A DNA stretch of 64,000 nt from an uncultured Chlamydiae bacterium (GTDB lineage: Bacteria > Chlamydiota > Chlamydiia > Chlamydiales > SM23-39). Positions 7,104 through 51,250 of this stretch are shown piece by piece (position 1 is the first letter of the stretch; every line of letters starts with the position of its first letter). The DNA is taken from the NCBI GenBank assembly GCA_963730605.1, contig CAVSSM010000011.1, positions 32,001 to 96,000 on the forward strand, written 5' to 3'. The notes beneath the pieces were generated by a model. The model was not told the DNA's origin. It was given only the letters and a program-made list of their open reading frames with translations, and made no database searches. Both the position numbers and the translations under genes were made by a program.

Positions 7104-7268
7104 TATATTGCGACCGCTCAAAAAGTGTGAAAAATGCCGAGGAAGCGGTGCAGATTTTTCATGTCTGGAACGAGGGGCGTGTTCATAGACACGGCCCGAA
7201 GTGAAGGCCAAAAATATGCTGCCAAGCTGACGCCGGCAGATTCACACTTTTTGGGTGGGAGCAGTATA
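7104..7268 (+). mobile_element. Palindromic MITE-like element, family A, copy 1 (165 bp)
   Basis: Imperfect TIR TATATTGCGACCGCTCAAAAAGTGTGAA...TTCACACTTTTTGGGTGGGAGCAGTATA; close inverted copy at 22199-22362. Confidence 0.85.
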
Positions 7269-7269
7269 C

Positions 7270-8040
7270 ATGCGCATCTGGGCGATCGCCGATCTACACT
7301 TGAGTTTTGGAGTCCCAAACAAGAACATGGACGTGTTCGGTCCTGGATGGGAGAACCATGCCGAGAAAATAAAGGCTCACTGGAGCGCGATGATCGGCCC
7401 GGAGGATCTCGTCTTGATCCCGGGAGATATTTCTTGGGCCATGCGGGTCGAAGAAGCGGCGGCCGATCTCGCTTGGATCCACGCGTTGCCGGGAACGAAG
7501 GTCATGATCAAGGGCAATCACGATTATTGGTGGGGCTCTTTGAAAAAAGTCTCAGAAATCCTCCCTCCTTCGATTCACCTGATTCAGAACAACGCTTTCC
7601 ATTGGCGCGGGGTAGCGATCGGCGGGGCCAGGCTTTGGGATACTCCCGAATACAGCTTTGCAAAATTTGTTGAATTTCGGGAAAACCCGCGGGAAAAGCC
7701 GGAAAAGCCTAGAGCTGCCCCAAACGCCGAAGCAGCCGTTCAGGAAGAACTTTCCCAAAAGATCTTCGATCGGGAATTACAGCGGCTGCAAGCGAGCCTC
7801 AAACAGTTGCAACCCGATGCGAAAATCCGGATCGCAATGACGCACTATCCTCCCATCGGCGCCGATCTATTGCCATCGCGCGCCGCCCAAATCCTCGAGC
7901 AAAACCAGATCCAAATCTGCGTCTTTGGCCACCTCCACAATATCAAACCCGACTGTTCCCTTTTCGGCGTTGCGAGAGGAGTTCGATATCTTTTGACCGC
8001 TTGCGATTACATCCGCCACCAGCCCATCGCAGTGTTGTGA
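7270..8040 (+). CDS. Calcineurin-like metallophosphoesterase
   Basis: DLH, GDISW, GNHD and GHLH motifs; ATG at 7270. Confidence 0.9.
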   Translation: MRIWAIADLHLSFGVPNKNMDVFGPGWENHAEKIKAHWSAMIGPEDLVLIPGDISWAMRVEEAAADLAWIHALPGTKVMIKGNHDYWWGSLKKVSEILPPSIHLIQNNAFHWRGVAIGGARLWDTPEYSFAKFVEFRENPREKPEKPRAAPNAEAAVQEELSQKIFDRELQRLQASLKQLQPDAKIRIAMTHYPPIGADLLPSRAAQILEQNQIQICVFGHLHNIKPDCSLFGVARGVRYLLTACDYIRHQPIAVL

Positions 8041-8498
8041 GAAAAAAAGAAAAGCGGCCCTTCATTTTATTGGAAATCCTCTTGGCCCTGACTCTGGTCA
8101 GCCTATGCGCCATTCCGCTCATCGTCAAGCCGATTGCAGCTTATCGTTTCGAGATGAAAGCGCTCGAAGAGGTGGAAGGAGAGAGGCTGGCCGATTGGAC
8201 TTTTTCAGAGATCAAAGAAGAGATGTTGCAACTCAAGATCCCGTGGGAAAAATTGCCTGCCCTGAGCGAGACGGCCGGCCCCTTTCCTTTAAATCCCGGA
8301 TCGATCCAAGTTCCCGGCAGACAGCCGAAAAAGATCAAACGCTCTTTCACTTTGTATTGCAAAGGGGAAAAAGAAGGGATGGCTGGGCAGACCTACAGGA
8401 TGCTCTATATCAAGATCGAATTCAACCCTGTCCTGTCGAAGAAAAAAAAGACCTACACCTATCGCCTGCCTGTTCAGAGGATTACGAGTCCTGCTTAA
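8037..8498 (+). CDS. Prepilin-like pseudopilin
   Basis: GTG start overlapping the upstream stop; KKEKRPFILLEILLALTLV prepilin-like N-terminus. Confidence 0.65.
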   Translation: MRKKEKRPFILLEILLALTLVSLCAIPLIVKPIAAYRFEMKALEEVEGERLADWTFSEIKEEMLQLKIPWEKLPALSETAGPFPLNPGSIQVPGRQPKKIKRSFTLYCKGEKEGMAGQTYRMLYIKIEFNPVLSKKKKTYTYRLPVQRITSPA

Positions 8499-8500
8499 AA

Positions 8501-10039
8501 TCAGAGTTCCATTAATCTCATGTATTCATTGAGTTCAATCATAAATGCATCTCGATCTACGTCTGGATTACGATCTAGGAATACACCCGCAGCTTGAATG
8601 AGTTGAGCGCGACCTGCACCCTTGTTTTCAACTATCAATCCGGCAACGAGCTCATTTGTTGTTTTTCTGACGCCATCCACATTTACACCTTTAAGGCGAC
8701 CTTGAAGCACAGCTACGATCTGGCGTTGCGTCTGTCCAGGAGGACAAACCCTGCGGCCATGTTCTATCGAGTCGCTCAAAGCCTTAATTATTCCAAAGCG
8801 GCAATTTTCTTGTTCTTTTTTCTCAGATTGCTCATTCGCAAAAATCCAGAGTCGAGCAATCAACTCTTCTCCGGAAATGCTAAGACGACCGTTATCGATA
8901 GTATAAATAGCATTATTGAGTAAAGGAGCCCAATCCTCGTTCTCGGGTGGGCCATGAAGGGCTTGCTGAGCTGTGTTTTTAATGGCTGAATCACCTGCAT
9001 AAGCGTTTAAATATTGTTTAAATTCTTCTACAGCTGCACTGATCCTCGTTGGGTTGAGCAGTCCCTGATGCTTTCTTAGTAATTCGATGGCTTCTCTTGT
9101 TTTTGCATCGCGGCTACCATGATGCACATCGATTGCATTGTGCCCTTGCGCTGCCAACTCGGCCATCCCAGCGCAAAAGGGTGGAATCGGTTGATTTAGT
9201 GGTGTTTCCAATATAACGAGCATTCGATGAAGGATAGCTTCATTTTCTAAACCGTTAGCAAGATCTTGAATCTGATGTAATACTCTTTGCATGCGACCTG
9301 CTCTTTCGTTCCCAGCATTTGCAACCGTACCAATTATTAAGCATATCTGTAGGCTATCCATTTGTGGATGAATAAGACGAGATACAAGGTTAATAACTTG
9401 TTCGCGTTCATTTGCAGGGATGCTTGCAACCGAACGAATTATAAAGGATATTCCGATGCCATGCATTTGTGGATGAATAAGACGAGATACAAGGTGAGTA
9501 ACTTGTTCACGTCCATTTACAGGGATGCTTGCGGCCTCTGTAAATATAGCTGATATACTCATGGAAAGCATGTGTGGACGAATAAGACGAGATACAAGGT
9601 GAGTAACTTGTTCACGTTCATTTGCAGGGATTCTTGCAATGTCGCTAATTATCTGGAGTATATTGGTGGTGTTACACATTTGTGGGTAACGAGATACAAG
9701 GCCAATAACTTGTCCACGTTCATTTACAGGAATTCTTGCAACGGTTTCAATGATTGCATTACGCGTCCGGTCATCCATGTCCGGAATCATAAGGCCGGAT
9801 GCTTGGGCAGCAATTTGCTCGCGATTATTTGAAACAATCCTACCGCTATTCAAATCTCTTTCTCCCGATGTGTTTCTGCTTGAGGCGATGGCCCACAAAC
9901 AACCGATCCCTCCGATAGCAGTAAGGGCCAGCCCAATCGCTTCCATTTGATAAGCGACCGCAAGACCTGCCCCTCCTACACACCCAGCCACAAATTTGCA
10001 ATATCCCATTGTATTCTGGATTCTTATCCCTATTGACAT
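8501..10039 (-). CDS. Repeat-containing effector-like protein, paralog 1 (about 5 x 35-aa repeats)
   Basis: Low-GC 512 aa ORF; N-terminal hydrophobic hairpin, IPANEREQV repeats, C-terminal domain shared with paralog 2. Confidence 0.8.
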   Translation of the reverse strand: MSIGIRIQNTMGYCKFVAGCVGGAGLAVAYQMEAIGLALTAIGGIGCLWAIASSRNTSGERDLNSGRIVSNNREQIAAQASGLMIPDMDDRTRNAIIETVARIPVNERGQVIGLVSRYPQMCNTTNILQIISDIARIPANEREQVTHLVSRLIRPHMLSMSISAIFTEAASIPVNGREQVTHLVSRLIHPQMHGIGISFIIRSVASIPANEREQVINLVSRLIHPQMDSLQICLIIGTVANAGNERAGRMQRVLHQIQDLANGLENEAILHRMLVILETPLNQPIPPFCAGMAELAAQGHNAIDVHHGSRDAKTREAIELLRKHQGLLNPTRISAAVEEFKQYLNAYAGDSAIKNTAQQALHGPPENEDWAPLLNNAIYTIDNGRLSISGEELIARLWIFANEQSEKKEQENCRFGIIKALSDSIEHGRRVCPPGQTQRQIVAVLQGRLKGVNVDGVRKTTNELVAGLIVENKGAGRAQLIQAAGVFLDRNPDVDRDAFMIELNEYMRLMEL

Positions 10040-10180
10040 AAATCCCTATATTATTTTAATGTTAATGTTATAATAATTATGCATGTTTAAAATTATTTTG
10101 TCAACAAATTAATTAATAAAGATAAATTTTTTTATAGACACTGGTTTCCTGATTAAGGAGATATAGAAAACTATAAACTA

Positions 10181-10250
10181 TACCCCAAAGATGCATCATC
10201 TTTGGGGTAGGGCGCCGTCGGATTCACACTTTTTGAGCGGGAGCGGTATA
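10181..10250. repeat. 13-bp perfect hairpin followed by the right end of a family A element
   Basis: TACCCCAAAGATG-CAT-CATCTTTGGGGTA, then GATTCACACTTTTTGAGCGGGAGCGGTATA. Confidence 0.75.
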
Positions 10251-10252
10251 AA

Positions 10253-10416
10253 CTCGACTTTGTACAATTTTGTGACAGCATCTTCGAGAGAATCGCTGGC
10301 CTTTTTTCCTTTTTTTGCTCATAAATAGTGCCTTCGGCTATGAATTTCGCAAAAAAAGAAAAAAATTGCAGAGCGCTTCCTCTGGATCTGCTCGCCAAAA
10401 ATTGTACAAAGTCGAG
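10253..10416. mobile_element. Palindromic MITE-like element, family B (164 bp)
   Basis: 19-bp perfect TIR CTCGACTTTGTACAATTTT / AAAATTGTACAAAGTCGAG. Confidence 0.82.
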
Positions 10417-10422
10417 ATAAAA

Positions 10423-12264
10423 TCAGAGTTCCATTAATCTCATGTATTCATTGAGTTCAATCATAAATGCATCTCGATCTACGTCTGGATTACGATCTAG
10501 GAATACACCCGCAGCTTGAATGAGTTGAGCGCGACCTGCACCCTTGTTTTCAACTATCAATCCGGCAACGAGCTCATTTGTTGTTTTTCTGACGCCATCC
10601 ACATTTACACCTTTAAGGCGACCTTGAAGCACAGCTACGACCTGGCGTTGCGTCTGTCCAGGAGGACAAACCCTGCGGCCATGTTCTATCGAGTCGCTCA
10701 AAGCCTTAATTATTCCAAAGCGGCAATTTTCTTGTTCTTTTTTCTCAGATTGCTCATTCGCAAAAATCCAGAGTCGAGCAATCAACTCTTCTCCGGAAAT
10801 GCTAAGACGACCGTTATCGATAGTATAAATAGCATTATTGAGTAAAGGAGCCCAATCCTCGTTCTCGGGTGGGCCATGAAGGGCTTGCTGAGCTGTGTTT
10901 TTAATGGCTGAATCACCTGCATAAGCGTTTAAATATTGTTTAAATTCTTCTACAGCTGCACTGATCCTCGTTGGGTTGAGCAGTCCCTGATGCTTTCTTA
11001 GTAATTCGATGGCTTCTCTTGTTTTTGCATCGCGGCTACCATGATGCACATCGATTGCATGCGCCAACTCGGCCATCCCAGCGCGAAAGGGTGGAATCGG
11101 TGGATTTAGTGGTGTTTCCAATATAACGAGCATTCGATAAAGGATAGCTTCATTTTCTAAACCGTTAGCAAGATCTTGAGGAATCTGATGTAATACTCTT
11201 TGCACGCGAGCTTCTCTTTCGTTCCCAGCACGCGCAACTCTCGCAATTATTCTGCTTCTGTCCAAGGCATCCGTTTCTTGATTAATAAGCCTAAATGCCA
11301 GAGTAATAGCTTGTTCACGTTCATTTACAGGGATGCTCGCAACTGATTCAATTATAGAGTATGTTGCGATGCTAGGCATTTGTGGATGAATAAGGGGAGA
11401 TACAAGATTAATAAATTGTACACGTTCATTTGCAGGGATTCTAGCAAAGGTGGCAATTGTAATGCCGAAATTCGCTCTGTCTTGAGTAAAAAGACGAGAT
11501 GCAAGGTTAATAAATTGTACACGTTCATTTGCAGGGATGCTTGCAACCGCTTTAATTATAAAGTACATTTCAATGCTAGGCATTTGTGGATGAATAAGAC
11601 GAGATGCAAAATCCATAACTTGTTCACGTTCATTTGCAGGGGTGCTTGCAACTATTTGAATGATGAATGGTGTGGATGGGTCGTCTATTCTAGTAATCTG
11701 CAATGCAAGATTCATAACTTGTTCATGTTCATTTGCAGGGGTCCTTGCAAGCGTTTGAATTATCAAGCGTCTCACGGTGATACTCGTTTCTGTATTAATA
11801 AGACGAAATGCAAGGTTCATAACTTGTTCGCGGTTATTTGCTGGGATGCTTGCAACTGTTTTAATTATATTATATCTATCGCTGCTAAAAAGCGTTCCTG
11901 CTGGAGGCAAAAAACTAAGTGCAAGGTCAATAACTTGCTTGCGATCATGCGCGGGGATTCTTGCAACGGTTTCAATGATTGCATTACGCATCGGGGCATC
12001 CATGTCTGGATGTATAAGACCAGATGCTTGGGCAGCAATTTGCTCGCGATTATTTGAAACAATCCTACCGTTATTCAAATCTCTTTCTCCCGATGTGTTT
12101 CTGCTTGAGGCGATGGCCCATAAACAACCGATCCCTCCGATAGCAGTAAGGGCCAGCCCAATCGCTCCCATTTGATAAGCGACCGCAAGACCTGCCCCTC
12201 CTACACACCCAGCCGCCAATTTGCAATATTCCATTGTATTCTGGATTCTTATCCCTATTGACAT
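10423..12264 (-). CDS. Repeat-containing effector-like protein, paralog 2 (about 8 x 35-aa repeats)
   Basis: 613 aa ORF with the same architecture as 8501-10039. Confidence 0.8.
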   Translation of the reverse strand: MSIGIRIQNTMEYCKLAAGCVGGAGLAVAYQMGAIGLALTAIGGIGCLWAIASSRNTSGERDLNNGRIVSNNREQIAAQASGLIHPDMDAPMRNAIIETVARIPAHDRKQVIDLALSFLPPAGTLFSSDRYNIIKTVASIPANNREQVMNLAFRLINTETSITVRRLIIQTLARTPANEHEQVMNLALQITRIDDPSTPFIIQIVASTPANEREQVMDFASRLIHPQMPSIEMYFIIKAVASIPANERVQFINLASRLFTQDRANFGITIATFARIPANERVQFINLVSPLIHPQMPSIATYSIIESVASIPVNEREQAITLAFRLINQETDALDRSRIIARVARAGNEREARVQRVLHQIPQDLANGLENEAILYRMLVILETPLNPPIPPFRAGMAELAHAIDVHHGSRDAKTREAIELLRKHQGLLNPTRISAAVEEFKQYLNAYAGDSAIKNTAQQALHGPPENEDWAPLLNNAIYTIDNGRLSISGEELIARLWIFANEQSEKKEQENCRFGIIKALSDSIEHGRRVCPPGQTQRQVVAVLQGRLKGVNVDGVRKTTNELVAGLIVENKGAGRAQLIQAAGVFLDRNPDVDRDAFMIELNEYMRLMEL

Positions 12265-12383
12265 AAATCCCTATATTAGTTTTTAATGTTATAATAATTA
12301 TGAATATTTCAAATTATTTTGTCAACAAATTTAATTAACAAAAACTAGTTTCTTTATAGACACTGGTTTCCCGATTAAGAAGA

Positions 12384-12570
12384 TAAGAGGGTGTCTACAA
12401 AGTGAGGGAACGCCCGAGTTTTTGGATTATTTTGGCCGCTTTTCGACTTCAAAGCTTGGGGGGGGGCCCATATACTGTTGTCGATATTGCCCCCCCCCCA
12501 AGTCTTGAATCGAAAATGGGCTCAAAAGAACCGAAAAATCGACAGAACCTCACATTGTAGACACCCTCTA
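12384..12570. mobile_element. Palindromic MITE-like element, family C
   Basis: TIR AGAGGGTGTCTACAA / TTGTAGACACCCTCT; internal poly-G/poly-C stem. Confidence 0.82.
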
Positions 12571-12573
12571 AGT

Positions 12574-12597
12574 TCGACTTTGTACAATTTTTGGCGA
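12574..12597. repeat. Isolated end of a family B element
   Basis: TCGACTTTGTACAATTTTTGGCGA is the exact reverse complement of 10392-10415. Confidence 0.8.
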
Positions 12598-12604
12598 ATA
12601 GTCT

Positions 12605-13894
12605 CTAAAGTTCGAAGTGGTCGGGGAGGCGGGTGCCGGCAGTGACGATGATGATCCCGTCTCGGATAAAGACCCCTTCGCCGCTGTCATACTGCTCTTT
12701 TTTTTCTTTGTTGATCAGCTGCACCCGATTGCCGATCCAGACGTGCTCGTCGATGATCGCTTTTTCAATGAGGCAGTTTTCCCCGATCGCAAAGTCTTTC
12801 GGAATCGGCTTCCCTTCAAGGCTCGGAGGCATGTAAAAGTGGTTTCCCATCATGACCGTATCGCGCATGATGGTCCCTTTTTTGATGTGGGACCTTAAGC
12901 CGATGATGCAATTTGTGATTTCTTTCGCTTCGATGACGCTCCCTTCGCAGATGATCGAATCTTTGATCACGGTCGATTTGATCTTCGGCCCGGGCAGAAA
13001 TGTCGGCCGCGTGTAGATGGGGCGCTTTTCATCATAGGTATCGAGTCCTTTTTCGGAGCGATTCAGGATGAGGTTCGCCTCATAATAGGATGCCACGGTC
13101 CCGATGTCTTCCCAATAACCATCAAAGACAAACGCCGCTGTTTTCCCTTTTTTGACCGCAGTGTCGATCAAGTGGTAGCCGAAATCGTGGCGCCCGTCTT
13201 GGCGCAAAAGCTCAGTCAGCGAGGCCCTTTTGAAAACGTAAATGCCCATTGACCCGAGATAGACAGGGGCATTCGCAGGTTCGAGCTCTCGTTCTTTGAA
13301 GAATGCATCCTTGAGGAGAAATTCTTCCAAAATAGCGACCTCTTTAGGTTTTTCGACAAACTCGGTGACTTTGCAATCAAGATCGATCTTGAGAAGCCCC
13401 ATCCGGCGAGCGTCTTTCTCGTGAACAGGGATGGCAGCGATGGTCAACTCGGCTTTTTTCTCGATTGCGAATGCGACCATGCTCTGAAAATCAATATTGT
13501 ACAATTGATCGCCGGACAAGATGAGGAAATAGTCGGCGCTCGATTTGAGGAGGGTCTGCAGGTTCTGCCGGACGGCATCGGCAGTCCCGGCGAAGAACAT
13601 TTTTTCTCCCTTTTCGTTTTCTTGAGGGGTTAAAACGTCGATCGACCCAGGGTTGAAAGCGTCGAAGCGGTAGGTTTGGTTGATGTGATGCTGCAGTTCC
13701 CCGGAAAGATACTGAGCGATCACGAAAATCTGGCGGAAATCGGAATTGATCGAGTTCGAGATGGGAATATCGATCAAGCGGTAGCGACCCCCATACGAAA
13801 CGGCCGGTTTCGAGTGGTGGATCGTCAGGGGATGAAGGCGCGTCCCTTGCCCTCCGGCAAGGATGATCGTTGCGACTTGGAATGACTTGGGCAT
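12605..13894 (-). CDS. glgC: Glucose-1-phosphate adenylyltransferase
   Basis: ILAGGQGTRLHPLT, KPAV, GTADAVRQN and YWEDIGT motifs. Confidence 0.95.
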   Translation of the reverse strand: MPKSFQVATIILAGGQGTRLHPLTIHHSKPAVSYGGRYRLIDIPISNSINSDFRQIFVIAQYLSGELQHHINQTYRFDAFNPGSIDVLTPQENEKGEKMFFAGTADAVRQNLQTLLKSSADYFLILSGDQLYNIDFQSMVAFAIEKKAELTIAAIPVHEKDARRMGLLKIDLDCKVTEFVEKPKEVAILEEFLLKDAFFKERELEPANAPVYLGSMGIYVFKRASLTELLRQDGRHDFGYHLIDTAVKKGKTAAFVFDGYWEDIGTVASYYEANLILNRSEKGLDTYDEKRPIYTRPTFLPGPKIKSTVIKDSIICEGSVIEAKEITNCIIGLRSHIKKGTIMRDTVMMGNHFYMPPSLEGKPIPKDFAIGENCLIEKAIIDEHVWIGNRVQLINKEKKEQYDSGEGVFIRDGIIIVTAGTRLPDHFEL

Positions 13895-13897
13895 CTA

Positions 13898-13926
13898 TTT
13901 CACACTTTTTGAGCGGTCGCAGTATA
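13898..13926. repeat. Isolated end of a family A element directly upstream of glgC
   Basis: 29-bp identity to 22334-22362 (TTTCACACTTTTTGAGCGGTCGCAGTATA). Confidence 0.85.
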
Positions 13927-13964
13927 ACCCGCACCATAGGGAGGGGGGGCTTTTTGATCAACCT

Positions 13965-19247: not shown

Positions 19248-19330
19248 GGCAAAGAGGGCGGCAATTATTAACCGGAGGGGGAAACAGGTGGCAACAAATG
19301 GGTTAGCGAGGCAAAGAGAACTCGGGTTAA

Positions 19331-22199
19331 TTAATGCTGAATGAATTGTTTTTGCCGCTGTACTTTCGAGAGCGCCTCTTGCAATTTTTGCTGGTGGGAT
19401 TGAGGGACCATCTCGAAGCGGAAGATATCGCGGGCGATCCCCTCCCTCAAGCGGATCGAAAAAGCTTCGAAAAGAGCAAACGATTCGTGTTTGAATTCGA
19501 GAAGGGGGTCTTTTTGACCTACGGTGCGCATATGGACATCGGAGCGGAGATGGTCGATGTGGAGGAGATGCTCCTGCCAGAGTTGGTCGATTTTCCGCGC
19601 CATTAGGTTGCGGATCACCTCGCCCAGGACATTTTGCGCCTTTTCAGCATCGGGAATGTCGGGACGATAGTGCACCAGCAGCTCGCGCTGAAAAAGGAGC
19701 TTTTGGCGGAAGGCGGCGATAACTTTAGCGGCCGCCTTCTCATCCTGGTCGCAGTCGGCGGTTTCCAGGCTCACCGGAAAATGATTCATGAGGGCTGCAG
19801 TCAACTGCTCAGGGCTGCCCGTTTTTTCCTGCGGGTGTGATGCGGCCATGTGACTGACGACAGCTTGCAGGATGTCTTCGGCGATCTCGATCGGCTTTTC
19901 GGCAAAGAGGAGCTCGTTGCGGAAAGCGTAGACCTCTTTCCTCTGCTTATTCATCACATCGTCGTATTCAAGAGTATGCTTACGGATGGAATAGTTGCGT
20001 TGTTCGACCCGCTTTTGCGCCGTTTCGATCGACTTGTTAAGCACTTTCGCCGAGATCGGCTCTCCTTCCGGAGGGCGGAACCTTTGCAGCAGGGAGGTCA
20101 TCCGGGGGGAGGCGAAGAGGCGCATAAGGGGGTCTTCAAAAGAGACGTAGAATTTGGAGGAGCCGGGGTCGCCGAGACGCCCTCCCCGGCCGCGGAGCTG
20201 CCGGTCGATCCTGCGGGAGTGATGGCGGGTCGTGCCGATCACATGGAGGCCGCCGAGCTCGCGCACTCCCTCTTTCAGTTTGATGTCGGTTCCGCGGCCG
20301 GCCATATTGGTGGCGAGCGTGATCGCGCCCATCTTGCCCGCATCGGCGATGATTTCGGCCTCTTTTGCGTGGTTCTTTGCATTGAGGATCGTGTGCTCGA
20401 GTTTGTTCTGCTTGAGGATGCGAGAGAGCTTTTCCGATGTTTCCACCGATTCGGTGCCGATGAGGATGGGACGCCCCTTTTCGTGGATTTCCTTGATCTC
20501 CTTGAGGATCGCGTTATATTTTTCCCGCTCGGTCATATAGATCTCGTCATCTCTATCGATTCTCTGGCAGGAGCGGTAGGTAGGGATTTCGAGAACTTGG
20601 AGTTTGTAGATTTCTTTGAATTCATTCGCCTCGGTCATGGCCGTTCCGGTCATGCCCGAGAGCCTTTCGTACATGCGGAAGTAGTTTTGCAGCGTAATCG
20701 TGGCATAGGTTTGCGTTTCGCCCTGGATGGCGACGTCTTCTTTCGCTTCGATCGCTTGGTGAAGGCCATCGGAAAAGCGGCGTCCGGGCTGCGGGCCGCC
20801 CCGTGTTTTCGTCGATGATGACGATCTTGTGGTCCTGGACGATGTAATCGATGTCTTTTTCCATGAGGAGATGGGCGCGGAGCATCTGCCGTAAGTTGTG
20901 GGAGCGCTCTTTGCGCTTGGCGTCGTTTTCGCGTAAACCAATCTTGGCTGTCATTTTTTCTTGTTCATTCAACGAGCCGTTTTGATCGATGACGGCATAT
21001 TCGTGCCCGAGGTCAAGCATGGTGAAATCATCAGCTCCGGACCCGTTTTGGAATTCGCTCCATGCCTGGATCCCTTTGTCGGTCAGCTCATATTCGTTGT
21101 TTCTTTCATCGACGACCATATAGAGCTCAGCGAGAGCGGCGAATTTTTCCTCTTTATTCTGTTCGCCGAAGTAGTAGGTTTCCCAGTTGTCGATCTCTTG
21201 CGCGAAGATCGGGGTTTTCCTTGATCCGCTTCAGGATCTTGTTGCGCGGCGTTCCCTTGTTGACGAGCCACAATTTCCGGAAGGCTTCTTTTTTCTTCTC
21301 TTCGTCTTCTTTGCCAAGCTTCTGTGGCGCTTCCTGGTTTTCTTCGATGAGATGCAAGCGATTCGAGAATTTTGCGCGCTTCGGTCGCCAGCCGGTTGCA
21401 TGAGTCTCGCTGGATGCGGACGAGATGGGCCACGCCCTCTTTCAGTTCATCGTACATCTGGCGGCTTTCGGGGACGGGTCCTGAAATGATGAGCGGGGTG
21501 CGCGCTTCGTCGATCAGGATCGAATCGATCTCGTCGACCATCGCGAAATAATGCCCCTCGCTGCACTTGCTCGTTTCGATTCATCGACATCGAATTGTCG
21601 CGGAGGTAGTCGAACCCGAATTCGGAAGCAGTGCCGTACACGATGTCGCTTGCGTACGTTTCTTTGCGCCGGTGGAGAGGAACATCATTCGTCAAATAGG
21701 AAACGGTCATCCCGAGGCTCCGGAAGATCGAGCCGATCCATTCACAGTCGCGCTTGGCGAGATAGTCGTTGACGGTGACAAGGTGGACCGGCTTCCCGGT
21801 CAAGGCATGGAGATAGAGTGGCATCGAGGCGGTGAGGGTTTTTCCTTCGCCCGTCTGCATTTCAGCGATCGAGCCATAGAACATCGCGATCGCGCCCAGG
21901 ATCTGGACGTCGTAGGGAATCATGTCCCACTTTTGCTCATAGCCCGAGACGTGGACGTCAGTGCCGCAAAGGCGCCGGCAGACGTTCTTGACCGCACCGA
22001 ACGCCTCCGGGAGAAGCGATTCCAAAGGTTCCCCTTTCGCTAACCGCTCCTTGAATTCAACCGTCTTCGCTGCAATTTGGACATCGCTTAAGCTGCGGTA
22101 TTTTTCTTCCCAAGCGTTCACCTGAGGCACAAGGCGCCAATACCGGTTCAAAAAACGGGATTGGTGTGTTCCGAAGATTTTTTTTAAGAGACCAAACAT
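19331..22199 (-). CDS. secA: Preprotein translocase SecA, broken into 5 ORFs by frameshifts (probably assembly errors)
   Basis: [39 protein letters not shown] and [10 protein letters not shown] motifs lie in successive frames. Confidence 0.92.
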
Positions 22200-22362
22200 A
22201 TACTGCTCCCACCCAAAAAATGTGAATCTGCCGGCGTCAGCTTGGCAGCATATTTTTGGTCTTCACTTCGGGCCGTGTCTATCAACACGTCCCTCGTTCT
22301 AGACACAAAAATCTGCGCCGCTTCCTGGGCATTTTTCACACTTTTTGAGCGGTCGCAGTATA
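22199..22362 (-). mobile_element. Palindromic MITE-like element, family A, copy 2 (164 bp)
   Basis: Reverse-complement near-copy of 7104-7268; ends TATACTG...CAGTATA and abuts the secA ATG. Confidence 0.85.
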
Positions 22363-22538: not shown

Positions 22539-22678
22539 GCTGCTTTGTTGCATAATTCTCTGCGGTGCAACATGCTTGCTGTAAATTATTTACCACAGAG
22601 ATCGACCATAGTTTCCTCTCCGTGGTAATATATTAATACGCAACCTCTTGGTGAAATGCAATTATGCAACAACGCCGC
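22539..22678. mobile_element. Palindromic element, family D
   Basis: 13-bp perfect IR TTGTTGCATAATT / AATTATGCAACAA (22545-22557, 22660-22672) plus an internal TTACCAC...GTGGTAA stem. Confidence 0.7.
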
Positions 22679-23816
22679 GTAAAATTGTATTTCCATAAAT
22701 CTCATCGTCACAATAAAATCTGCTCTCCCAATAACCAAGGAGGGTTTTATGGCACATCCAGTGGACCAAGTAGCAAACCGCGACCTAACTGTAAATGATA
22801 GAAAAATTGAGTCTAAGAACCTATCCTCCAATTCTTAATGATTCATTTATGGTCGATTTTGAGGCGATTTTTCGTCGTCGACCGCCCGAAGTAAATATCG
22901 GGACGGTGATCTTTACGAGGGCGGAGGCGCGAAAAGCGCCCAAAAGCGTGCCGTAAAGGGATCGTGAAGAATTGGAGGATAGGTTCAAAAACGATTCAAC
23001 TCTCTCGACTGACATAATCACGAATAATGGAGTCCAACAGGAAAATTGGGAGAAGGCTGCTAAGATTTCCAGGAAGAATGATGCTGAGATTTTGAGCTGC
23101 CGCCACAAAATGTATATTGAAAAACAGGCAAAAGACACGAATTAATGATCCTAAAGGATGCTCGAATCAAGACGAGTGCACCAAAATACAAGATCCAACG
23201 ACCTCCGTATCCCTTGCGGGGTGGGCACGCTTCGGATTCAATTGCAAGCGTCGAGCACCCGCAATGTTCGAGTTCAAAAGCCTCAAACAGCGTAGGGGGC
23301 CCCCGCCTAACCCGAGTACAACATTTGATGCGCTCGCCCTGCGGGGCACGGAAAGTCGCACATGGCGTAAAATTGTATTTCCATAAATCTCAGCGTCACA
23401 GTAAAATCTGCTCTTCTAATAACCAACGAAGGAGGGTTTTATGGCAGGTAGAGTGGATAATAACCGAGCAGCAAACCAGTACCTAGTAACTGATGATAGT
23501 GAAACTGTGTCTAAAAACGATTCAACTCTCTCGACTGACAACAGCATAGATGATGAAGTCCAAACGGATATTAACGCACTTATTAAAATAAGAGAGTAAG
23601 AGTGGAAGAGGTCTGCTGAGACTTTCAGGAAGAATGCTGCCGAGCTTTCGATCCGCGGCAATTATAGGGAACTGGCAAGAGAGACGCAAAACACGAGTTC
23701 ATGATCTTAAAGGTTGCTTGACTCAAGACGAGTGACCAAAATACAAGATCCAACGACCCCTGTATCCCTCCTGGGGGTGTGCCCGCTTCGGATTAATTGC
23801 AAGCGTCGAGCACCCT
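22678..23816 (+). repeat. Degenerate tandem duplication (units about 22678-23260 and 23366-23816), each with RBS, small interrupted ORF and a 105-bp palindromic element (family E)
   Basis: CGTAAAATTGTATTTCCATAAATCTCA, GGAGGGTTTTATGGCA, AAAAACGATTCAACTCTCTCGACTGACA and AATTGCAAGCGTCGAGCACCC each occur twice. Confidence 0.8.
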
Positions 23817-23839
23817 CATCACATGAACAATAAGACGAC

Positions 23840-29045: not shown

Positions 29046-29160
29046 TATACCGCGCCCGCTCATTTTGAGTGAATTTTGTTGAGCGCCTTTTGCGCCCCAG
29101 TGCTATTAGCTCGATCTTGCTAACATATTAAAGTTTGCGGCGATCTCCGCAACGATTCTT
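29046..29160. mobile_element. Left part of a family A-related element
   Basis: TATACCGCGCCCGCTCATTTTGAGTGAA resembles family A ends; exact 15-bp inverted partner at 32902-32916. Confidence 0.6.
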
Positions 29161-31700: not shown

Positions 31701-31714
31701 TTATAGAGGCGGGG

Positions 31715-32557: not shown

Positions 32558-32562
32558 CCGAT

Positions 32563-32729: not shown

Positions 32730-32902
32730 TAAGGGGCTGTTAAAGAATAAAGTAAACTGTTGTGCGGTTCTTAGAGTGGCCCAGATGTCTGCGGCAGCGA
32801 CAAGGTCAATGTTCGAGCAATATAACCGAGTCGCTGCCGTCTGACAGATGGGCCGCTATAATGGCCTGGAAATGGTTTAACTTATTTTTTAACAGCCCCT
32901 AA
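32730..32902. mobile_element. Palindromic MITE-like element, family F
   Basis: TIR AGGGGCTGTTAAA / TTTAACAGCCCCT; internal CGGCAGCGAC / GTCGCTGCCG stem. Confidence 0.82.
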
Positions 32903-32924
32903 GCGGGCGCGGTATAACTTTGGC

Positions 32925-35767: not shown

Positions 35768-37341
35768 TGAAGATCGGCATCATCGGATCGGGACTCATGG
35801 GAGGGTCTCTTCAAAAAGGGATCGCCAATGGAATCGCCAAGGGAATCGATGGGGTTTTGCTCGAGGGCGATTGGATCGAAAAGATCGAAGAGATCGACAT
35901 TTTGATTTTGGCTACTCCGATCACCGCCATTTTGGAAATCGCTGAAAAAATTGCAAAGCGGCGAGCTCGAAAAAAACTTCTTGTCCTCGATATCGGAAGC
36001 GTCAAGAAGAGGATTACGGAAACATTCGAAAAACTGACAGACGGCTTTGTTAAATTTCTTGGGAGCCATCCAATGGCAGGCACAGAAAAAAGCGGATACG
36101 AAAACAGCGACCCCAAGATTTTTCAGGGAGCCGTCTGGGTGATCACGCCTCATAACAAGAACACTGAAGGCTCAATGACAGTGGCCGAAGAGTTGATCCG
36201 CAGCCTTGGCGCAAAGCCGATGCGGATGGATGCGGCGGAGCACGACCGGCGGGCCGCGATCATCTCTCAACTCCCTTATCTCATTTCAAAGACGCTTTTC
36301 GATTTTGTCGATCCCGAAAGCCTTGCAATGGCGGGGCCGGGGTTCAAGTCAATGATTCGGCTCGCCGCCGATAATTTGGAAATGCGAAGAGAACTCGGCC
36401 GCTACAACCGAGAGAATATTGCACATTGCCTGAAACAGTATATTGACTCATTAACAAATTTGCTAGGATCTGAAATGCAGGAAGCGAAGCGAACGGAATG
36501 CGATCCTGCTTCAGGATCGCCAAAGAACTACAGTTTCCGGAGGAATCCTATGAAGAAAATCGCATATCAAGGGGTCCCAGGATCATATAGCCATATGACG
36601 GCGCTTCGCCTCTTTGGGACCGAGGCTGCTTTCTTGGGGCTTTCCCAATTTTCGGACGTGATCGAAGCCGTTGAAAAGGGATCTGCAGACGCCGCCCTTC
36701 TTGCCATCGAGAACACGCTCATCGGGCCGATCTATGAGGTGCTGGATTTAATTGGGGAAAGCACGTTGGAGATCAATGGGGAGACGCCGACGCGGATCGA
36801 ACATTGCCTTCTGACTCTTCCGGATGCGGAGATCGAAGAGATCCGAACCGTTTATTCTCATCCGAAGGCGTTGGGGCAATGCCTGAAGTTTTTCCGCAAA
36901 CACCCTAACCTCCTCCCTGAAGCCTATGTCGATACGGCAGCCGCTGCCGGCTTTGTCGCGAAAAAGAAAGATCCAAGTGCGGCCGCGATCGCAAGCAGGA
37001 TGGCGGGATCGATCCATGGGCTCAAAGTGTGCTTGGCGAACATCGAAGACAACCCCGAAAATTTCACCCGCTTTCTCTTGCTTTCGACAAAACCCTCAGA
37101 GGGTCCGAAATGCACGATCCGGATCACTTTGGAACATAAGCCCGGAAAGCTCGCGGAGATCCTTTCGGTCATTTCCAAGGAGGGGGTCAATGTCACCTCC
37201 ATCATCTCTCGCCCCCTCATCGGCCGTCCGTTCGAATACGCTTTTTACCTCGATCTCGAAACGCCGAGCGTGTCCCTCCTCGAAGAGATCAAGGGAAAAT
37301 CCAAAACCTTCCGGAACTTAGGCCGCTACGGTGCATTATGA
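35764..37341 (+). CDS. Prephenate dehydrogenase (TyrA) fused to prephenate dehydratase-ACT (PheA)
   Basis: GSGLMGGS, DIGSVK and HPMAG; then IAYQGVPGSYS, IENT, SHPKALGQC and NFTRF; internal ATG with GGAGG at 36550. Confidence 0.85.
   Translation: MMKIGIIGSGLMGGSLQKGIANGIAKGIDGVLLEGDWIEKIEEIDILILATPITAILEIAEKIAKRRARKKLLVLDIGSVKKRITETFEKLTDGFVKFLGSHPMAGTEKSGYENSDPKIFQGAVWVITPHNKNTEGSMTVAEELIRSLGAKPMRMDAAEHDRRAAIISQLPYLISKTLFDFVDPESLAMAGPGFKSMIRLAADNLEMRRELGRYNRENIAHCLKQYIDSLTNLLGSEMQEAKRTECDPASGSPKNYSFRRNPMKKIAYQGVPGSYSHMTALRLFGTEAAFLGLSQFSDVIEAVEKGSADAALLAIENTLIGPIYEVLDLIGESTLEINGETPTRIEHCLLTLPDAEIEEIRTVYSHPKALGQCLKFFRKHPNLLPEAYVDTAAAAGFVAKKKDPSAAAIASRMAGSIHGLKVCLANIEDNPENFTRFLLLSTKPSEGPKCTIRITLEHKPGKLAEILSVISKEGVNVTSIISRPLIGRPFEYAFYLDLETPSVSLLEEIKGKSKTFRNLGRYGAL
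36464..36550. mobile_element. 87-bp palindromic element forming the TyrA-PheA linker
   Basis: TAGGAT...ATCCTA ends; perfect internal hairpin GCGATCCTG-CTT-CAGGATCGC; GAAGCGAAGCGAA motif shared with 51084-51250. Confidence 0.65.
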
Positions 37342-39024: not shown

Positions 39025-39027
39025 GAC

Positions 39028-46024: not shown

Positions 46025-47059
46025 ATGAGATTTTTCCCTCTCGCCTTTTTGCTCGTCGCGGGCTGCAGCAGTCCCTACATGGGAAAGGATCTGTTTGGAG
46101 CGGATGAATTCGTTCTCGACTCTTACAAGATCCGCGAGGGAAAATTTTCCATTTTAGAAATGGAAGGGAAAGAACCGGGGGAGCTCGATGATTCGATGCT
46201 CAACGAATACCAGGACAAAATTCATGAAGACGATGTCCTGCAGGTGGCGGTTTATAACCCGAAGCGGAAAGATGTGGCAGACGCGGTGGAATATATCGGC
46301 AGCCGGATCGGATATCGGGTCGTCAACGGTGAAATTTCCCTGCCCGACCTGCCGCCTGTAACTGTCGCGGAACTGACTCTCGACCAGGCGAAGGAAAAGA
46401 TCCAAGTGCTCTACCATGAACATATCCGCGATACGGAGGTCTTCGTCACCTATAAAGACAGGATCGCAAGAAAAGTGGAACTGGCAGGCCTTGTTTCGCT
46501 TCCCAGCGTTCCTGTCGACGGGAAAATCCGGCTGTTCGATGTACTTTCCAAAGCTCGGATCCCTACCGAGGCGAACCTCTTCAAAAGCTACATCATCCGG
46601 GACGGCTCTTTTCTTCCCGTCGATATGAACAAGCTCATGAAAGAAGGGGACATGTCACAAAACATCGTCGTGCGAGGAGGGGATAAAATCTACATTGCCG
46701 AGCCGTCCGCGGCGACCTTGATGGTCATGGGAGAAGTGGGAAGAGAGCGGGTCGTCAATCTCCCATCCGGTTTTATGCCGCTCCGGCAGGCCTTGGCCGA
46801 ATCGGGCGGGATCCCTTACACGGGGGATAAGTCCTATATCCAGGTGATCCGCGGCAATATCGCCAAACCGAAAATCTATACGTTGAGCTGGGAGCATGTT
46901 ATTCATCTGCCGAATGACAGCCTTCTCCTGATGCCGGGCGATATCGTCTATGTCGCCGCGAAGCCGATCACTGAATGGAACCGGTTCATTTCGCAGCTTC
47001 TGCCCATCTTTGGAGGATTCGATGTGATCAGCAAACAAATGCAATTGTTCGTGCCATGA
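46025..47059 (+). CDS. wza: Wza-like polysaccharide export lipoprotein
   Basis: LVAGC lipobox; GEISLP...LTL export motif; PGDIVYV...WNRFISQLLP C-terminus. Confidence 0.82.
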   Translation: MRFFPLAFLLVAGCSSPYMGKDLFGADEFVLDSYKIREGKFSILEMEGKEPGELDDSMLNEYQDKIHEDDVLQVAVYNPKRKDVADAVEYIGSRIGYRVVNGEISLPDLPPVTVAELTLDQAKEKIQVLYHEHIRDTEVFVTYKDRIARKVELAGLVSLPSVPVDGKIRLFDVLSKARIPTEANLFKSYIIRDGSFLPVDMNKLMKEGDMSQNIVVRGGDKIYIAEPSAATLMVMGEVGRERVVNLPSGFMPLRQALAESGGIPYTGDKSYIQVIRGNIAKPKIYTLSWEHVIHLPNDSLLLMPGDIVYVAAKPITEWNRFISQLLPIFGGFDVISKQMQLFVP

Positions 47060-50000
47060 AGCATCAGAAAAGGCCGCTTCACGATCCCGATGAGAGGGTA
47101 TTCACCCTATTTGATGTAAAACGGCTTTACTTGAGCCAAAAGAAGAAAATTCTCAGAGCTTCTTTTTGGGGAGCTCTTCTTGCGTTCAGTTTCATTTTGA
47201 TCAGGTCTGTTCCAAAATATCAAGTTTCTGCGACTTTTAAAGAGGCTCCCAAATCCATCGAGGGGACAGGAGGCCTGGAAAAGCTTCTTCTCTCAAATGG
47301 AAGCGCAAGCTCTCAAGAGTCTCAAACAGCCACTTTGATCCAGTCCAATCAAGTCTTAAAACCTCTGGTCGTCCGGATGGGCACCCAAGCTACGGTGCGC
47401 AAAGCGGGCCTTTTGTCTCGGGTCTATAAGAGGATCAGGGACAATATCCTTTCCGAGAGAGGGCTTAGCTTAAGCGATGTCGATGATTTCGCCTTCCAGA
47501 ACGTTGTTTACGATGGGGAGAAAACACTAACATATAGCCTCAGGTTTGAAGATTCTGAACATTTTTCTATTGGGTCTGGAAAAAAAACAATTGCTTCGGG
47601 ATCGCTCGGCTCTTGCGTACGTTTGCCTGAGGCAGAGCTAACGATTGTCAAAGTTCCAAAAGGGCTTAAGGTCGGGACTCATTACTCCCTTTCTATTCAA
47701 CCTTGGGTTTCTGCAGTGAATGCGATCCGTTCCAATTTTCGGATAAAGTGCCTCAAACAGCAAAAATCGATTCATGAACTCAAGTTTTTCCATAGGGACC
47801 GATATTTTGGGACGGAGCTTTTGAATGCGTTGACGGAAGAATATCGGAGATATTTAAAGCGGGACCATGATCAGGTTGTCCACGAGCAGCTCAGTTATTT
47901 GCAGCAGAAACAAGAAGAAATATGTGCCAACATGTCCTCGGTTTTCGACGAGTATACAGAATATTTGCAAACCAATCTCAGCCGATCGGGACAATTGGGC
48001 TTAACACAAGAGATCGGAGGAATCACTAAGGAATGCAATGTGCTTGCTAATAAAATCTCTTCGATCGACTTGGAGCTGGATCGGTTAGTTCGAATGGAAG
48101 TGGATCAAAAAGCATTTGTTCCAATGGATGATACTCCTTTTTCACGCTCTCTCAAAGATACCTTGAGCGCAATATCGGAGTTGAAACAGCAGCGCGATTT
48201 AATCGAGTTGTCATTGCCATCTCAAAGCCGCGCTCTTAATGAGCTGCAGTATGAAAACAAAAAAGGGGAATTGAAAGAGGTTCGAGACCAGCTTTGCGCG
48301 ATGCAGCATCTTCTCGATGGAATTGAAAAGCATACGCCGCTTTCTCAGGACGCGTTATTCGATGCGGGAGAATATCTCGGAGCTTGGGCTGGCCGTTTAG
48401 CTGATTCCCAAGAGGAAGACAGAAAAGGGCTGGCTGAGTATCTCGAAAACGCCGTCCGGCTTCTTTCTATGCAAGAAAAAATGGTTCAGGAACAAATCCA
48501 TTATGCCCACGACACTCCAGCCGCGTTCAAAGGCATCGATTTAACGACGGCCCGGGCTCTTTTCCTAGAATACTACAAAAAGCTCGATCAAATCGCAGAA
48601 GGGGTAAGCCATTTTTCTCGCTTAGCGGATGAAATTGAGAGAGGCGATTTCGAGATCAGTTCTTTAAGCGCCGTGCTCTTGGATCCCCTAAGCCAGCGTC
48701 TGATTCAACAAGCAAGCGAGATTGCCCTCAAATTGAAGGATGAAAAACATCATAGCGAAAAAGAAGGAAGCCGGTGGGCAGAGGAGTTGTCGCTGCAAAA
48801 AAAAATCCTCAAAGAACATCTGGATCAACTTTTTAAACTCGAACAAGTGAAATCCGATCTAGTCCAAAATAGGATCGATGCTTTGCAGGCAATCAGATTC
48901 GGCTCCATTTCGGGGCAAATTTCCGTTTTGCAAGAGAGACTGGCCGATTCCGTCAAAGAGCGGAAGACCGCGCTTTTGAAGGAGAAAACAATCCTGGAAG
49001 AAAAAGTGAGGCAAATTCTAAATGGCCTCACCGATATTCCCGAAAGGTGGCGAAGGGAGAAATGGCTGAACTTAAAGAGCCAGATGGGGATCAAAATGGT
49101 CCAAGGGTTGACCGAACTTGTCGAATCAAAGACAATTAGCTCTCATCTCCACCATGTCGAATCAAAACCTCTCGATATTGCGACCCTTCCTACCACTCCC
49201 TGTTCCCCAGGGCTTTTGGTCAAAGCCTTCCTGGGTGCCATGCTGGCCGGATTCTTTGTGTTCTCCCGCGCCTTTCTCGGGGCGGTTTTGAAGGGATTCC
49301 CCTCAACGAAAGAAAAACTTTGTGCGATGGGATACCCTGTTCTCGGCGAGATCTCAACGGTTTGCGATGGTCCCGGGACAGAGCCTCGCGGGGCGGATCT
49401 GGAAGCCCTTCGGCAAATATTTCTTTTCCTCGACAAAGAGCCCATACCGGGAGTGATTGAAAAAACGGGAATTGGCTCCTCAGATTTTTCAGCTGGAGCG
49501 AGGGACATGGCCAAAGGCAAGGCTGCGGAAACACGAGAAGGTCCAGTGGACCTTCGCAGTGCGGAGCAGATGAGCACAGCGAATTGCCTCGGAAGCGAAG
49601 ATGAAAAATCTGAGTCAAAGCCGACGCCGCACCAAAACCGATTTTTCAATCGCGAGCGGTATAAAGTGAAAGTTGTTGGCCTTATCGAAGGCAAAGGCCC
49701 CGATTATTCTTTTGCGCTGGCAGAGCATTTTTCCCGCATGTCCTTGCGCCCACTGGTCATCCGATGCGATTTCAACATGAAGTTCAACCGGGAAGACCTG
49801 CCGGGGGTCTTGCAGGTTTGGAAAGAGGAGATCTCCAGCCCACCTCTCAAGAGGAGGCAGGGCTACGATCTTCTCACGTCCGGCGGATTCACCCCTTACG
49901 GGGCGGAAGTCATCCGGTCGCTTGCATTTCAAAACTCACTTGATAAGTTTAAAAAAGAGTATGACTTTGTCTTGATGGTCTTTCGCTCGCCGCTGAACCT

Positions 50001-50148
50001 CGCGGACAGCTTGGCGCCTCTTTCCCTTTGCGACTATGCGATCGTCACCGTCTCTGGAGAGCCAACGGAGCAGTTGACACCGTTTATCGATTGGGCTTAC
50101 CATGGAGACATGTGCCGTTTAGCCATTCTCACAGCGAGCTCTCCATGA
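47056..50148 (+). CDS. Wzc/GumC-like polysaccharide co-polymerase with degenerate kinase domain and a 73-aa insert
   Basis: Two TM helices flanking a long coiled-coil region; follows wza with ATGA overlap. Confidence 0.75.
49444..49662. mobile_element. 219-bp palindromic element inserted in frame in the Wzc-like gene
   Basis: 25-bp TIR with 20 matches; internal blocks shared with family A. Confidence 0.82.
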
Positions 50149-51104
50149 CAGGCAAGCGCAAAAAAATTCTTGTAGCAGGAGGAGCAGGATTCCTAGGCTC
50201 TCATCTCTCTCTGAGGCTTTTGAAAGAAGGCAACGAGGTTCTATGTGTCGATAATTTCTACACAGGCAGCCGCGATAATTTGCTCTCTTTAATGGAACAT
50301 CCTCGTTTCGAAGTGATGCGCCACGACATCTGTTTCCCTCTACATGTGGAGGTGGACGAGATCTATAACTTTGCCTGCCCGGCATCCCCTTTCCACTACC
50401 AGCGCGATCCCATCCAGACGGCGAAGACCAGCTTTCTCGGAGCTCTTCACCTCCTCGGATTGGCCAAGCGCCTCAAAATCAAAATCTTTCAAGCCTCGAC
50501 GAGCGAAGTCTACGGCGATCCCCATATCCATCCGCAAACCGAAGAGTATTGGGGCCACGTCAATCCGATCGGCATCCGATCTTGCTATGATGAAGGAAAG
50601 CGGTGCGCTGAAACTCTCTTCTTCGATTATTACCGAGTCCATGGCCTTCGCATTAAAGTCGCACGCATCTTCAACACGTTCGGCCCAAGGATGCATCCGA
50701 ACGATGGCCGAGTTGTCTCCAATTTTATTGTCCAAGCCCTTCGCAATGATCCTATTACCGTATACGGAGAAGGCAAGCAAACCCGATCTTTCTGCTATGT
50801 GGACGATCTGATCGATGCAGTGATTCGGATCATGGATACGCCAGATAGCATCACAGGGCCCTTCAACATTGGGAATCCGACCGAGATGCCAGTCATCGAC
50901 CTTGCGCGGCAAGTTCTGGCCTTAACCGGCTCTTCTTCCAAGATCGAGTTTGTCCCTTTGCCCTCTGACGACCCGAAACAAAGGCGGCCTGACATTCGGT
51001 ATGTAAAGGAAGTTTTAGGATGGGAGCCGAAGGTTCCTTTGCAAGAGGGTCTCAAGGCGACCATCGATCATTTCAGGAGCGTTATTAACCCGCTAGGCAA
51101 ATAA
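50145..51104 (+). CDS. uxs: UDP-glucuronate decarboxylase (UDP-xylose synthase)
   Basis: [22 protein letters not shown] and CYDEGKR motifs. Confidence 0.93.
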
Positions 51105-51250
51105 GAGAAAACAAAGGGCACTAGCGAAGCGCACGAGGTCCCCCCGACGCATCGTCGGGAGGGGTGTGAAAGCCAGATCGAAGCGAAGCGAATCGGCCCG
51201 AAGGGAGCCGCAGCAAGCCCTTTGTCTCTTATTTGAAATAGCGGGTTAAT
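51084..51250. mobile_element. Palindromic element, family H, overlapping the uxs stop and the DMT start
   Basis: TIR ATTAACCCGCTA..CAAATAAGAGA..ACAAAGGGC / GCCCTTTGTCTCTTATTTG..TAGCGGGTTAAT. Confidence 0.82.

Follow-up and report, generated by a model that had tools for sequence, protein, structure and literature searches.

The window described here is a 64,000-nucleotide stretch (positions 32,001 to 96,000 of the forward strand of contig CAVSSM010000011.1, assembly GCA_963730605.1; G000:C11:32001-96000 in our numbering) from the genome of an uncultured Chlamydiae bacterium, G000, which comprises 2.22 Mb in 12 contigs and is 83% complete. Its gene content is that of ordinary housekeeping genes, and no transposase was found among the 48 open reading frames (ORFs) of the window that were scanned. 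[quoted passage not shown] Chlamydiae are usually regarded as poor in small mobile repeats. A sequence-only reading of the window had listed 17 such sites and had proposed a system like that of the Rickettsia palindromic elements (RPEs) in a chlamydial genome. The chlamydial origin is borne out by the named homologues of EF-Ts (82-87% identity), which carry mostly Chlamydiota/Chlamydiia/Chlamydiales labels and a few Verrucomicrobia labels, and by a DUF1494 gene in the window genome. As for the elements, they very probably represent non-autonomous DNA parasites, a population spread over the whole genome and recently active, moved by several insertion sequence (IS) families and filtered by selection.

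Multi-copy status was determined by BLAST of the window against the whole genome, and genome-wide counts were obtained with a library of 28 element representatives. For the comparison of empty and filled sites, 1.30 of the approximately 1.7 Mb of the congener G003 (89% identity) were used, and 80 insertions of G000 were inspected at their orthologous sites. The ORF calls were crude.

The library detected 211 full-length copies and 345 loci, amounting to 2.5% of the genome. Regarding the 17 sites listed earlier, the positions given were right to within a few bases, and 14 of them (7104, 10181, 10211, 10253, 12384, 12574, 13898, 22199, 29046, 32730, 32902, 36464, 49444 and 51084) belong to multi-copy families; the other three were rejected as multi-copy mobile elements, 22539 being single-copy and 23156 and 23711 forming a tandem-duplication pair. 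All eight MITE families of the window have terminal inverted repeats, are shorter than 500 bp and lack a transposase, and the hairpins of the elements are strong, with z of the inner fold between -2 and -7.7. Target duplications are specific to the family. They consist of TA in families A (exact in 6 of 6 full copies), I (21 of 24 full copies), M and N, of 5 bp in family C (18 of 25 full copies) and in a further family, S (22 of 23), of TNA in family D (24 of 27 full copies), of TAA/TTA in family K (5 of 6 copies) and of any 2 bp in family F, whose 14 copies are 99% identical and all exactly duplicated. The earlier statement that most elements end at or near TA therefore fails for C, D, K and F. 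Clean gaps between G000 and G003 numbered 87 for sequence present only in G000 and 43 for sequence present only in G003; four window sites are empty in G003 (Table 1), and a related strain (run X6) carries, at 39535, a TA element that is missing from G000. By inverted repeats, size, family-specific duplication, copy number and empty orthologous sites, the elements of the first class are MITEs, and the empty sites argue that they are mobile.

Intact multi-copy IS630, IS1634, ISAs1, IS5 and IS3 elements are present in G000, together with ISAzo13 and a group II intron. IS630 is represented by one element in 14 near-identical intact copies and by two frameshifted types, and the ends of the 14-copy element are identical to those of family M (49445) at 21 of 24 positions. 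An IS982 element of G000, itself interrupted by an F element, carries the ends of family S; G000, G063 and G070 contain IS5 elements that have F-like ends and an AT duplication, and in G065 there is an IS5 of 905 bp whose ends are D-like and whose duplication is TAA. Transposases acting in trans on non-autonomous elements are established IS biology. Duplication types and matching ends suggest that IS630, two IS5 groups, IS982 and probably IS1634 are involved: most of the elements would be MITEs on which DDE transposases of the resident IS families act in trans, with IS630 likely moving the TA families, the IS5 groups those with TNA and 2-bp duplications, and IS982 and probably IS1634 those with 5-bp duplications. 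Mobilization of the IS630 type at TA, as proposed at the outset, thus finds a partner in the M ends but does not extend to the other duplication types and IS families. (A standalone 122-aa ORF with similarity to DUF4096, an IS5 N-terminal-like domain, lies without inverted ends at G000:C1:576777, locus L218; akin matches occur in many genomes of the family, and it may represent a domesticated DNA-binding gene.)

Regarding insertions inside genes, 19 of 38 candidate coding sites, distributed over 18 genes, add sequence in frame when compared with G003; the remaining 19 were also present in G003, were ambiguous because N-terminal, or lacked coverage. Among the additions are those in MurG (+17 aa), NAD kinase (+26), UppP (+79), an E1 dehydrogenase (+54), a sulfatase (+88), a secretin (+88), an inositol monophosphatase (+44) and YbeY; MurC-Ddl has 8 aa more beyond a unit already shared, and the Wzc-like ORF of the window (46975-50148, 1057 aa) has a net addition of 73 aa from the family M MITE at 49445. 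The NAD kinase insert takes the place of a 7-residue stretch between both matched blocks of PDB 2an1, and other in-gene inserts fall within Pfam domains. Families whose length plus duplication is divisible by three have 12 of 59 full copies in long ORFs. For families C, S, F, K, I and N, which are frame-incompatible, the count is 0 of 98; in other families of this kind, ORFs span six copies, all at most 11 codons from a possibly miscalled start. The MITEs lying deep in ORFs thus belong to frame-compatible families, which suggests a selection filter. Outside genes, 22 of 27 empty sites lie at most 15 nt from a called start or stop, compared with 32% of non-genic TA positions (p ~1.5e-7), in agreement with the contacts described earlier, and six insertions are at 4-nt stop/start overlaps. 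Specific targeting of operon junctions was considered and rejected, the signal being strong against a TA-weighted null but not against a per-junction null.

We infer that the elements insert at short targets and that selection mainly keeps insertions which spare gene function, namely those at gene junctions, where a stop or start can be restored by the duplication, and those inside genes whose length plus duplication is a multiple of three with an open frame. Random insertion followed by purifying selection fits better than a mechanism adapted to coding sequence. Remodelling of genes, as claimed in the sequence-only reading, holds at the level of the sequence, while some insertions simply break their ORF. 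For annotation, inserts of 8-88 aa in MurG, NAD kinase, UppP and YbeY of chlamydial metagenome-assembled genomes are repeat-derived.

The second class, hairpin B (window 10183-10207), is present in 159 copies in G000. Of these, 95 are close to the terminus of a MITE; the other 64 are standalone copies, distributed over 36 loci and often arranged as tandem units of 36, 39 or 51 bp. Twenty-six of the 36 loci are in ORFs of at least 200 aa (two of these are one duplicated stretch and two are arrays forming much of their ORF), with in-frame copies in MurG, NAD kinase and other genes. The junctions of standalone copies have no duplication and often no TA, but show microhomologies or small deletions that keep the frame. 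B is also a module in longer A-type elements and in several MITEs. Many copies of it are present in G000, G003 and G006 and one in G001, with none found in G002, G004 and G005; one occurrence was seen in 300 other genomes of the order. Metagenome data yielded 25 loci, 22 of them strongly similar to G000 proteins, and B lies there in varied interiors; metagenome contigs include a MITE with other ends that contains B and an independent in-frame B in a polA-like ORF. With neither an inverted-repeat shell nor a duplication, B is the most RPE-like component of the window genome and, functionally, the nearest counterpart of short RPEs, so that the earlier likening to RPEs applies to the in-frame additions in conserved genes but most closely to this hairpin. 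B would be gained, lost and tandemly multiplied inside MITEs and would also land alone in genes, most likely entering by recombination or template switching at short homologies. Two candidate movers were rejected: the Y1 transposases associated with repetitive extragenic palindromic sequences (RAYT), of which six hits in the seven (incomplete) genomes of the genus include none near B, and the Rpn-type nuclease (PF04754), found in 0 of 7 genomes. Two further occurrences are recorded here: in G006 (L277, L286, L289 and L292) B lies within a different composite repeat of short tandem motifs, and at G000:C4:66421-67439, in the tuf-nusG region, it is found on each side of an apparent tRNA gene as well as between nusG and rplK.

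The third class, family L, is a unit of 77-81 bp without a terminal inverted repeat, which is a correction to the earlier reading as regards the window copy at 36464. Four loci in G000 and four in the fetched part of G003 are all at start codons of the ATGAA/GTGAA type or the equivalent position. The units close with a Shine-Dalgarno-like motif and a regenerated start-like sequence; units of 77 and 80 bp contain a short ORF whose stop overlaps the new start, those of 81 bp result in an N-terminal extension, and arrays hold up to four units. The family is confined to G000, G003 and run X6, with 0 of 299 other genomes of the order scoring. It would land on start codons as a unit resembling the mycobacterial interspersed repetitive units (MIRU), bringing its own ribosome-binding site and start. 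In the window, the L insert joins tyrA and pheA into one ORF of 525 aa (35764-37341). In G003, which has no insert there, the tyrA stop overlaps the pheA start; run X6 has the L element plus 7 nt more, with the stop kept, and a contig of run X1 (which may be the source sample) equals G000 exactly across the fusion site. From the comparison of X6 and X1, the TyrA-PheA ORF is ascribed to the L insertion followed by a loss of 7 nt. An internal start may still make PheA alone.

A single dedicated RPE-like system, using one TA/IS630-type mechanism adapted to coding frames and benefiting the host, would account for the in-frame additions in 18 genes, for the M and B units that vary inside ORFs by steps of 36, 39, 45 and 51 bp, and for the interior modules common to the TA families. 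It is an improbable explanation given four duplication types and at least four IS families; moreover, the most abundant families are frame-incompatible and not in ORFs, the inserted peptides are unrelated and read in different frames, and mismatches between arms show no overall bias of G-T over A-C. Alternatively, the repeats could be kept by the host for a regulatory function, as terminators, RNase III sites or small RNAs, instead of being mobile parasites. In favour of this are the strong hairpins, the enrichment beside starts and stops and the B hairpin at 10181, which scores as terminator-like on the minus strand. Such an origin deserves very little credence and is refuted by the exact target duplications and by the lack of conservation at orthologous sites in G003. 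At gathering thresholds, Rfam matched three tRNAs of the window and none of the elements, so that neither single-copy status nor identity with known RNAs undoes the earlier proposal; a sub-threshold match to a miRNA-type hairpin inside the element at 12387 was taken as chance. In the region 7000-14000, terminator-like signals numbered 11 versus 7.9 +/- 2.9 in shuffles, and promoter-like signals 12 versus 10.8 +/- 2.9, so that neither count is in excess of the shuffles. Secondary effects of the elements on neighbouring genes are possible. Collections of plasmids and phages contained no match to the elements.

For B, independent movement is a reasonably probable explanation. The standalone copies in genes could instead be footprints of TA MITEs that were mostly deleted, with in-frame remnants surviving and B not itself mobile. 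This we consider rather unlikely, although 95 of the 159 copies do lie near a MITE terminus, several standalone copies share the few bases that flank the MITE module, small deletions of host sequence occur at the junctions, and the element at 10181-10248 is just such a deletion product (it had been taken for two separate elements, at 10181 and 10211). Several orthologous empty sites, however, have neither a TA nor a remnant of an end; B is also found inside unrelated hairpin repeats of G000, in the composite repeat of G006 and in the metagenome MITE with other ends; and a variant flanked by a T-run and a C-run is found repeatedly in genes but was not seen as a MITE module. Several points weigh against a parasite population moved by IS families and filtered by selection. 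No transposition event was observed, and no mover was found for B or L. The IS5 partner of family D is in G065 and not in G000 (83% complete), the ends of family C and IS1634 are only loosely alike (13 of 24), and no IS with matching ends was found for A, I, N and K. Per junction, the enrichment at gene junctions is not significant (12 of 31 versus 28%, p = 0.13). Residual indel errors in the assembly mean that individual frame calls may be wrong. Polarity comes mostly from one congener, so that some gaps could be losses in G003, and outgroup support for gain is confined to 49445 (G001), 13898 (G008/G011) and NAD kinase (PDB homologues).

The interiors of the MITEs are modular. Family D and a two-copy family with F-type ends and a 2-bp duplication have interiors that are 90% alike over 117 bp, and one copy of the latter has a middle almost identical to that of D. 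Interiors of 130-250 bp are common to TA families that differ in their ends; family M shares modules with N-type and other shells, and the N-type MITE at 51085 has its interior in common with M-type elements. A scan of 185,579 genomes found D ends at 41 loci in other genomes (20 with chlamydial labels including Waddliaceae and Rhabdochlamydiaceae, 17 unlabelled, 3 Verrucomicrobia and 1 Chitinophagia), with an exact 3-bp duplication in 30 of 41. The D interiors diverge to unrelatedness, yet the two arms of one element have an identity of 0.78 versus 0.60 across elements (23 distinct elements, calculated by script), which points to arm-to-arm correction or to selection for the foldback. RNAalifold recovered only the terminal 22 pairs from the D alignment, and selection for the structure of an RNA strand was rejected on the missing G-T excess between arms.

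Of 13 families with no detectable interior similarity, 11 are 160-176 bp long (p ~1e-5 against a uniform distribution over 100-200 bp; post hoc). A-tracts phased at 10.5 bp were detected in four of the 13 (C, D, F and S, all abundant and young; p 0.007-0.057 against a palindromic null), the others being unphased, and in 4 of 8 clusters of D interiors at p < 0.05. Intrinsic curvature was consequently rejected as a general rule and is kept as a lead only; no consensus for integration host factor was found in 16 representatives. It is hypothesized that interiors may capture new ends and that bending may set a limit on length. A modular economy is conceivable, though we hold it somewhat doubtful: foldback interiors of about 165 bp and cassettes such as B would be swapped between end pairs of different transposase families, an interior would outlive its helper by acquiring new ends, the palindrome copying a new end to the other arm, and B would also enter genes without a transposase-type duplication. 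If true, this would provide an origin for the interiors of type II MITEs and a living model of the entry of RPE-type peptides into proteins, and the length of 160-176 bp and the phased A-tracts would reflect a DNA-bending limit on joining ends.

The elements of the window are given in Table 1. The stacking of elements described earlier is seen at 10253 and 32733. The list of 17 was incomplete: it lacked the elements at 22817-22986 and 19260-19335, an ISAs1-type end at about 23325, a half hairpin at 28415 and the stretch 52157-52377.

Table 1. Repeated elements, remnants and related features of the window
Feature	Position	Strand	Remarks
Family A MITE, 161 bp	7106..7266		TA duplication; just 5' of metallophosphoesterase ATG; empty in G003
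Internally deleted A-type TA element	10181..10248		B hairpin (10183-10207) and A-type right end
Family C MITE, 164-165 bp	10253..10416		5-bp duplication overlaps end of 10181 element; stop codon 6 bp away
Family D whole-length foldback MITE	12387..12568		TNA duplication
Isolated family C end	12574..12597		Between D element and glgC stop codon
Isolated A-type right end	13898..13924		Just 5' of glgC start; ~30 bp missing in G008, G011
Short N-type element	19260..19335		At secA stop; multi-copy interior; site differs in G001
Family A MITE	22201..22360		At secA start codon
Single-copy relic, inverted ends	22541..22676		1 copy in genome
Family F MITE, 170 bp	22817..22986		2-bp duplication
Palindromic 3' tail, tandem unit copy 1	23156..23263		Two copies only in genome
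Palindromic 3' tail, tandem unit copy 2	23711..23818		Matches only 23156 tail
Left 105 bp of family I TA MITE	29048..29152	+	Genome BLAST match to family I
Family K MITE, 167 bp	32733..32899		TAA/TTA duplication; sits in TAA of I-type right end
Family I right-end remnant	32897..32914	+	Near aroDE stop codon
Family L start-codon insert, MIRU-like	36471..36555	+	No terminal inverted repeat; empty in G003
Family M TA MITE, 217 bp + 2 bp	49445..49661		In frame in Wzc-like ORF; absent from G003 and G001 orthologues
N-type MITE, 165 bp	51085..51249		Overlaps epimerase stop, abuts next start; empty in G003

At the TA of the secA start (22201), G003 carries a different, M-type TA element (on two G003 contigs). 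The secA gene itself (19331-22199, minus strand), the only one in the assembly, is split into three ORFs owing to three single-base extras relative to G003, probably by assembly error. The ends of the relic at 22541 resemble those of C1:72834-73959, which encodes an IS5 transposase, and weak matches to the relic occur in G366 and G050. It lies in a 1.3-kb block (22536-23831) that is missing from G003 and consists of two diverged tandem units, each with a ribosome-binding motif, a short ORF region and a palindromic tail; the F element is in the first, and the ISAs1-type end mentioned above is in this block. The region 28362-32925, in whose place G003 has an HD-domain-like gene, lies between the left part of a family I element and its right end. 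It contains the half B hairpin, a segment that is 99% identical to C1:606385-607227, a permease and fragments that resemble nonribosomal peptide synthetases and share 91% identity with G001. The 221 bp at 52157-52377 are missing from G003, and a part of 40-55 bp is repeated at 9 other places of the genome.

Further repeats were observed at the level of genes. On the minus strand, 8501-12264 holds two tandem paralogous ORFs of 512 and 613 aa that have no Pfam match; they contain internal repeats of 105/204 bp, are identical at their 3' ends and have strong promoters of the sigma-70-like kind. The stretch 58753-61223, which may be an integrated element, has two tRNA genes and after them a 257-bp segment that is repeated and a D5-like primase/helicase ORF. 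Outside the window, G000:C10:52539-83769 and C11:1-15733 are very large coding regions that are internally repetitive.

Regarding known systems, the bacterial MITEs described in passages of PMC10969869, PMC2229807 and PMC3184786 (Correia/NEMIS, ERIC, RUP, YPAL, Nezha, Chunjie and QMITE1/2) are shorter than 500 bp, have terminal inverted repeats, target duplications, hairpins and ends shared with IS elements, and are mostly intergenic with some in-frame fusions; for Correia, PMC2229807 gives a short form, open in frame, that occurs within genes and a long, closed one that occurs between them. The chlamydial families resemble these in size, inverted repeats, duplications, stable hairpins, IS-shared ends and the lack of a transposase. 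They differ in that many families from several IS groups are found within one 2.2-Mb genome of an intracellular bacterium, in the length of 160-176 bp in 11 of 13 families with unrelated interiors, and in the occurrence of one interior under different ends.

Expansion of IS elements has been described for the environmental chlamydia Rhabdochlamydia oedothoracis, as autonomous IS elements and pseudogenes (PMC9723776); IS proliferation is the common trait, and the present case differs by its non-autonomous elements. The terms 'MITE' and 'palindrom' are absent from the main text of PMC9723776, and 'chlamyd' is absent from the main texts of PMC10969869, PMC3184786 and bioRxiv 10.1101/2024.01.18.576219. 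No published account of MITEs or RPE-like repeats in Chlamydiota was found in a literature search that had supplements and most subscription journals outside it.

Short palindromes of the REP (repetitive extragenic palindromic), REPIN and BIME (bacterial interspersed mosaic element) kinds and others tagged with GTAG or CGTC are treated in parts of PMC3733652, where GTAG repeats are mentioned for the Planctomycetes-Verrucomicrobia-Chlamydiae superphylum in general. Like these, B is a 25-bp high-copy hairpin in singles, dimers and tandem arrays, both intergenic and intragenic; unlike them, it has by inspection no terminal GTAG/CGTC tag in the usual place and no B-flanked Y1/RAYT gene in the incomplete genomes at hand, and it is also a module of MITE interiors. 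B is therefore not placed among the classical REPs. For family L, the MIRU have the same design according to the description in PMC12548453. The likeness, by description only, lies in the position at start codons, in the stop of a short ORF overlapping the regenerated start and in tandem arrays, and suggests that family L may work like MIRU. It differs in being chlamydial and lineage-restricted, in the N-terminal extension that results from 81-bp units and in the window copy, which fuses two genes after a 7-nt loss.

The closest parallel is with the RPEs, which in the accounts of PMC10969869, PMC3733652, PMC1166351 and PMC2229807 are palindromic, are inserted in frame in unrelated housekeeping ORFs of an intracellular bacterium and occur in long (about 150 bp and more) and REP-sized forms. 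In R. felis, 85 of 728 palindromic repeats are in ORFs (PMC1166351), and the target duplication of RPEs is listed as unknown in the survey of PMC2229807. The present repeats are likewise palindromic, lie in frame in unrelated conserved genes of an intracellular bacterium and have long and short forms; in contrast to that listing, the long forms here clearly show target duplications and have candidate transposases. The likeness is one of description, and no Rickettsia-labelled record was among the 41 loci of the D-end scan. By analogy, the first two classes may work like RPEs. With young insertions that are polymorphic between close relatives and stand beside intact candidate transposases, RPE-type entry into genes becomes testable, and the question splits three ways: elements moved by DDE transposases and filtered by frame, a hairpin cassette without duplication, and a start-codon insert behind the tyrA-pheA fusion. 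The elements are real, recently mobile and of known kinds in a new phylum, their variant features being the sharing of interiors and the duplication-free hairpin.

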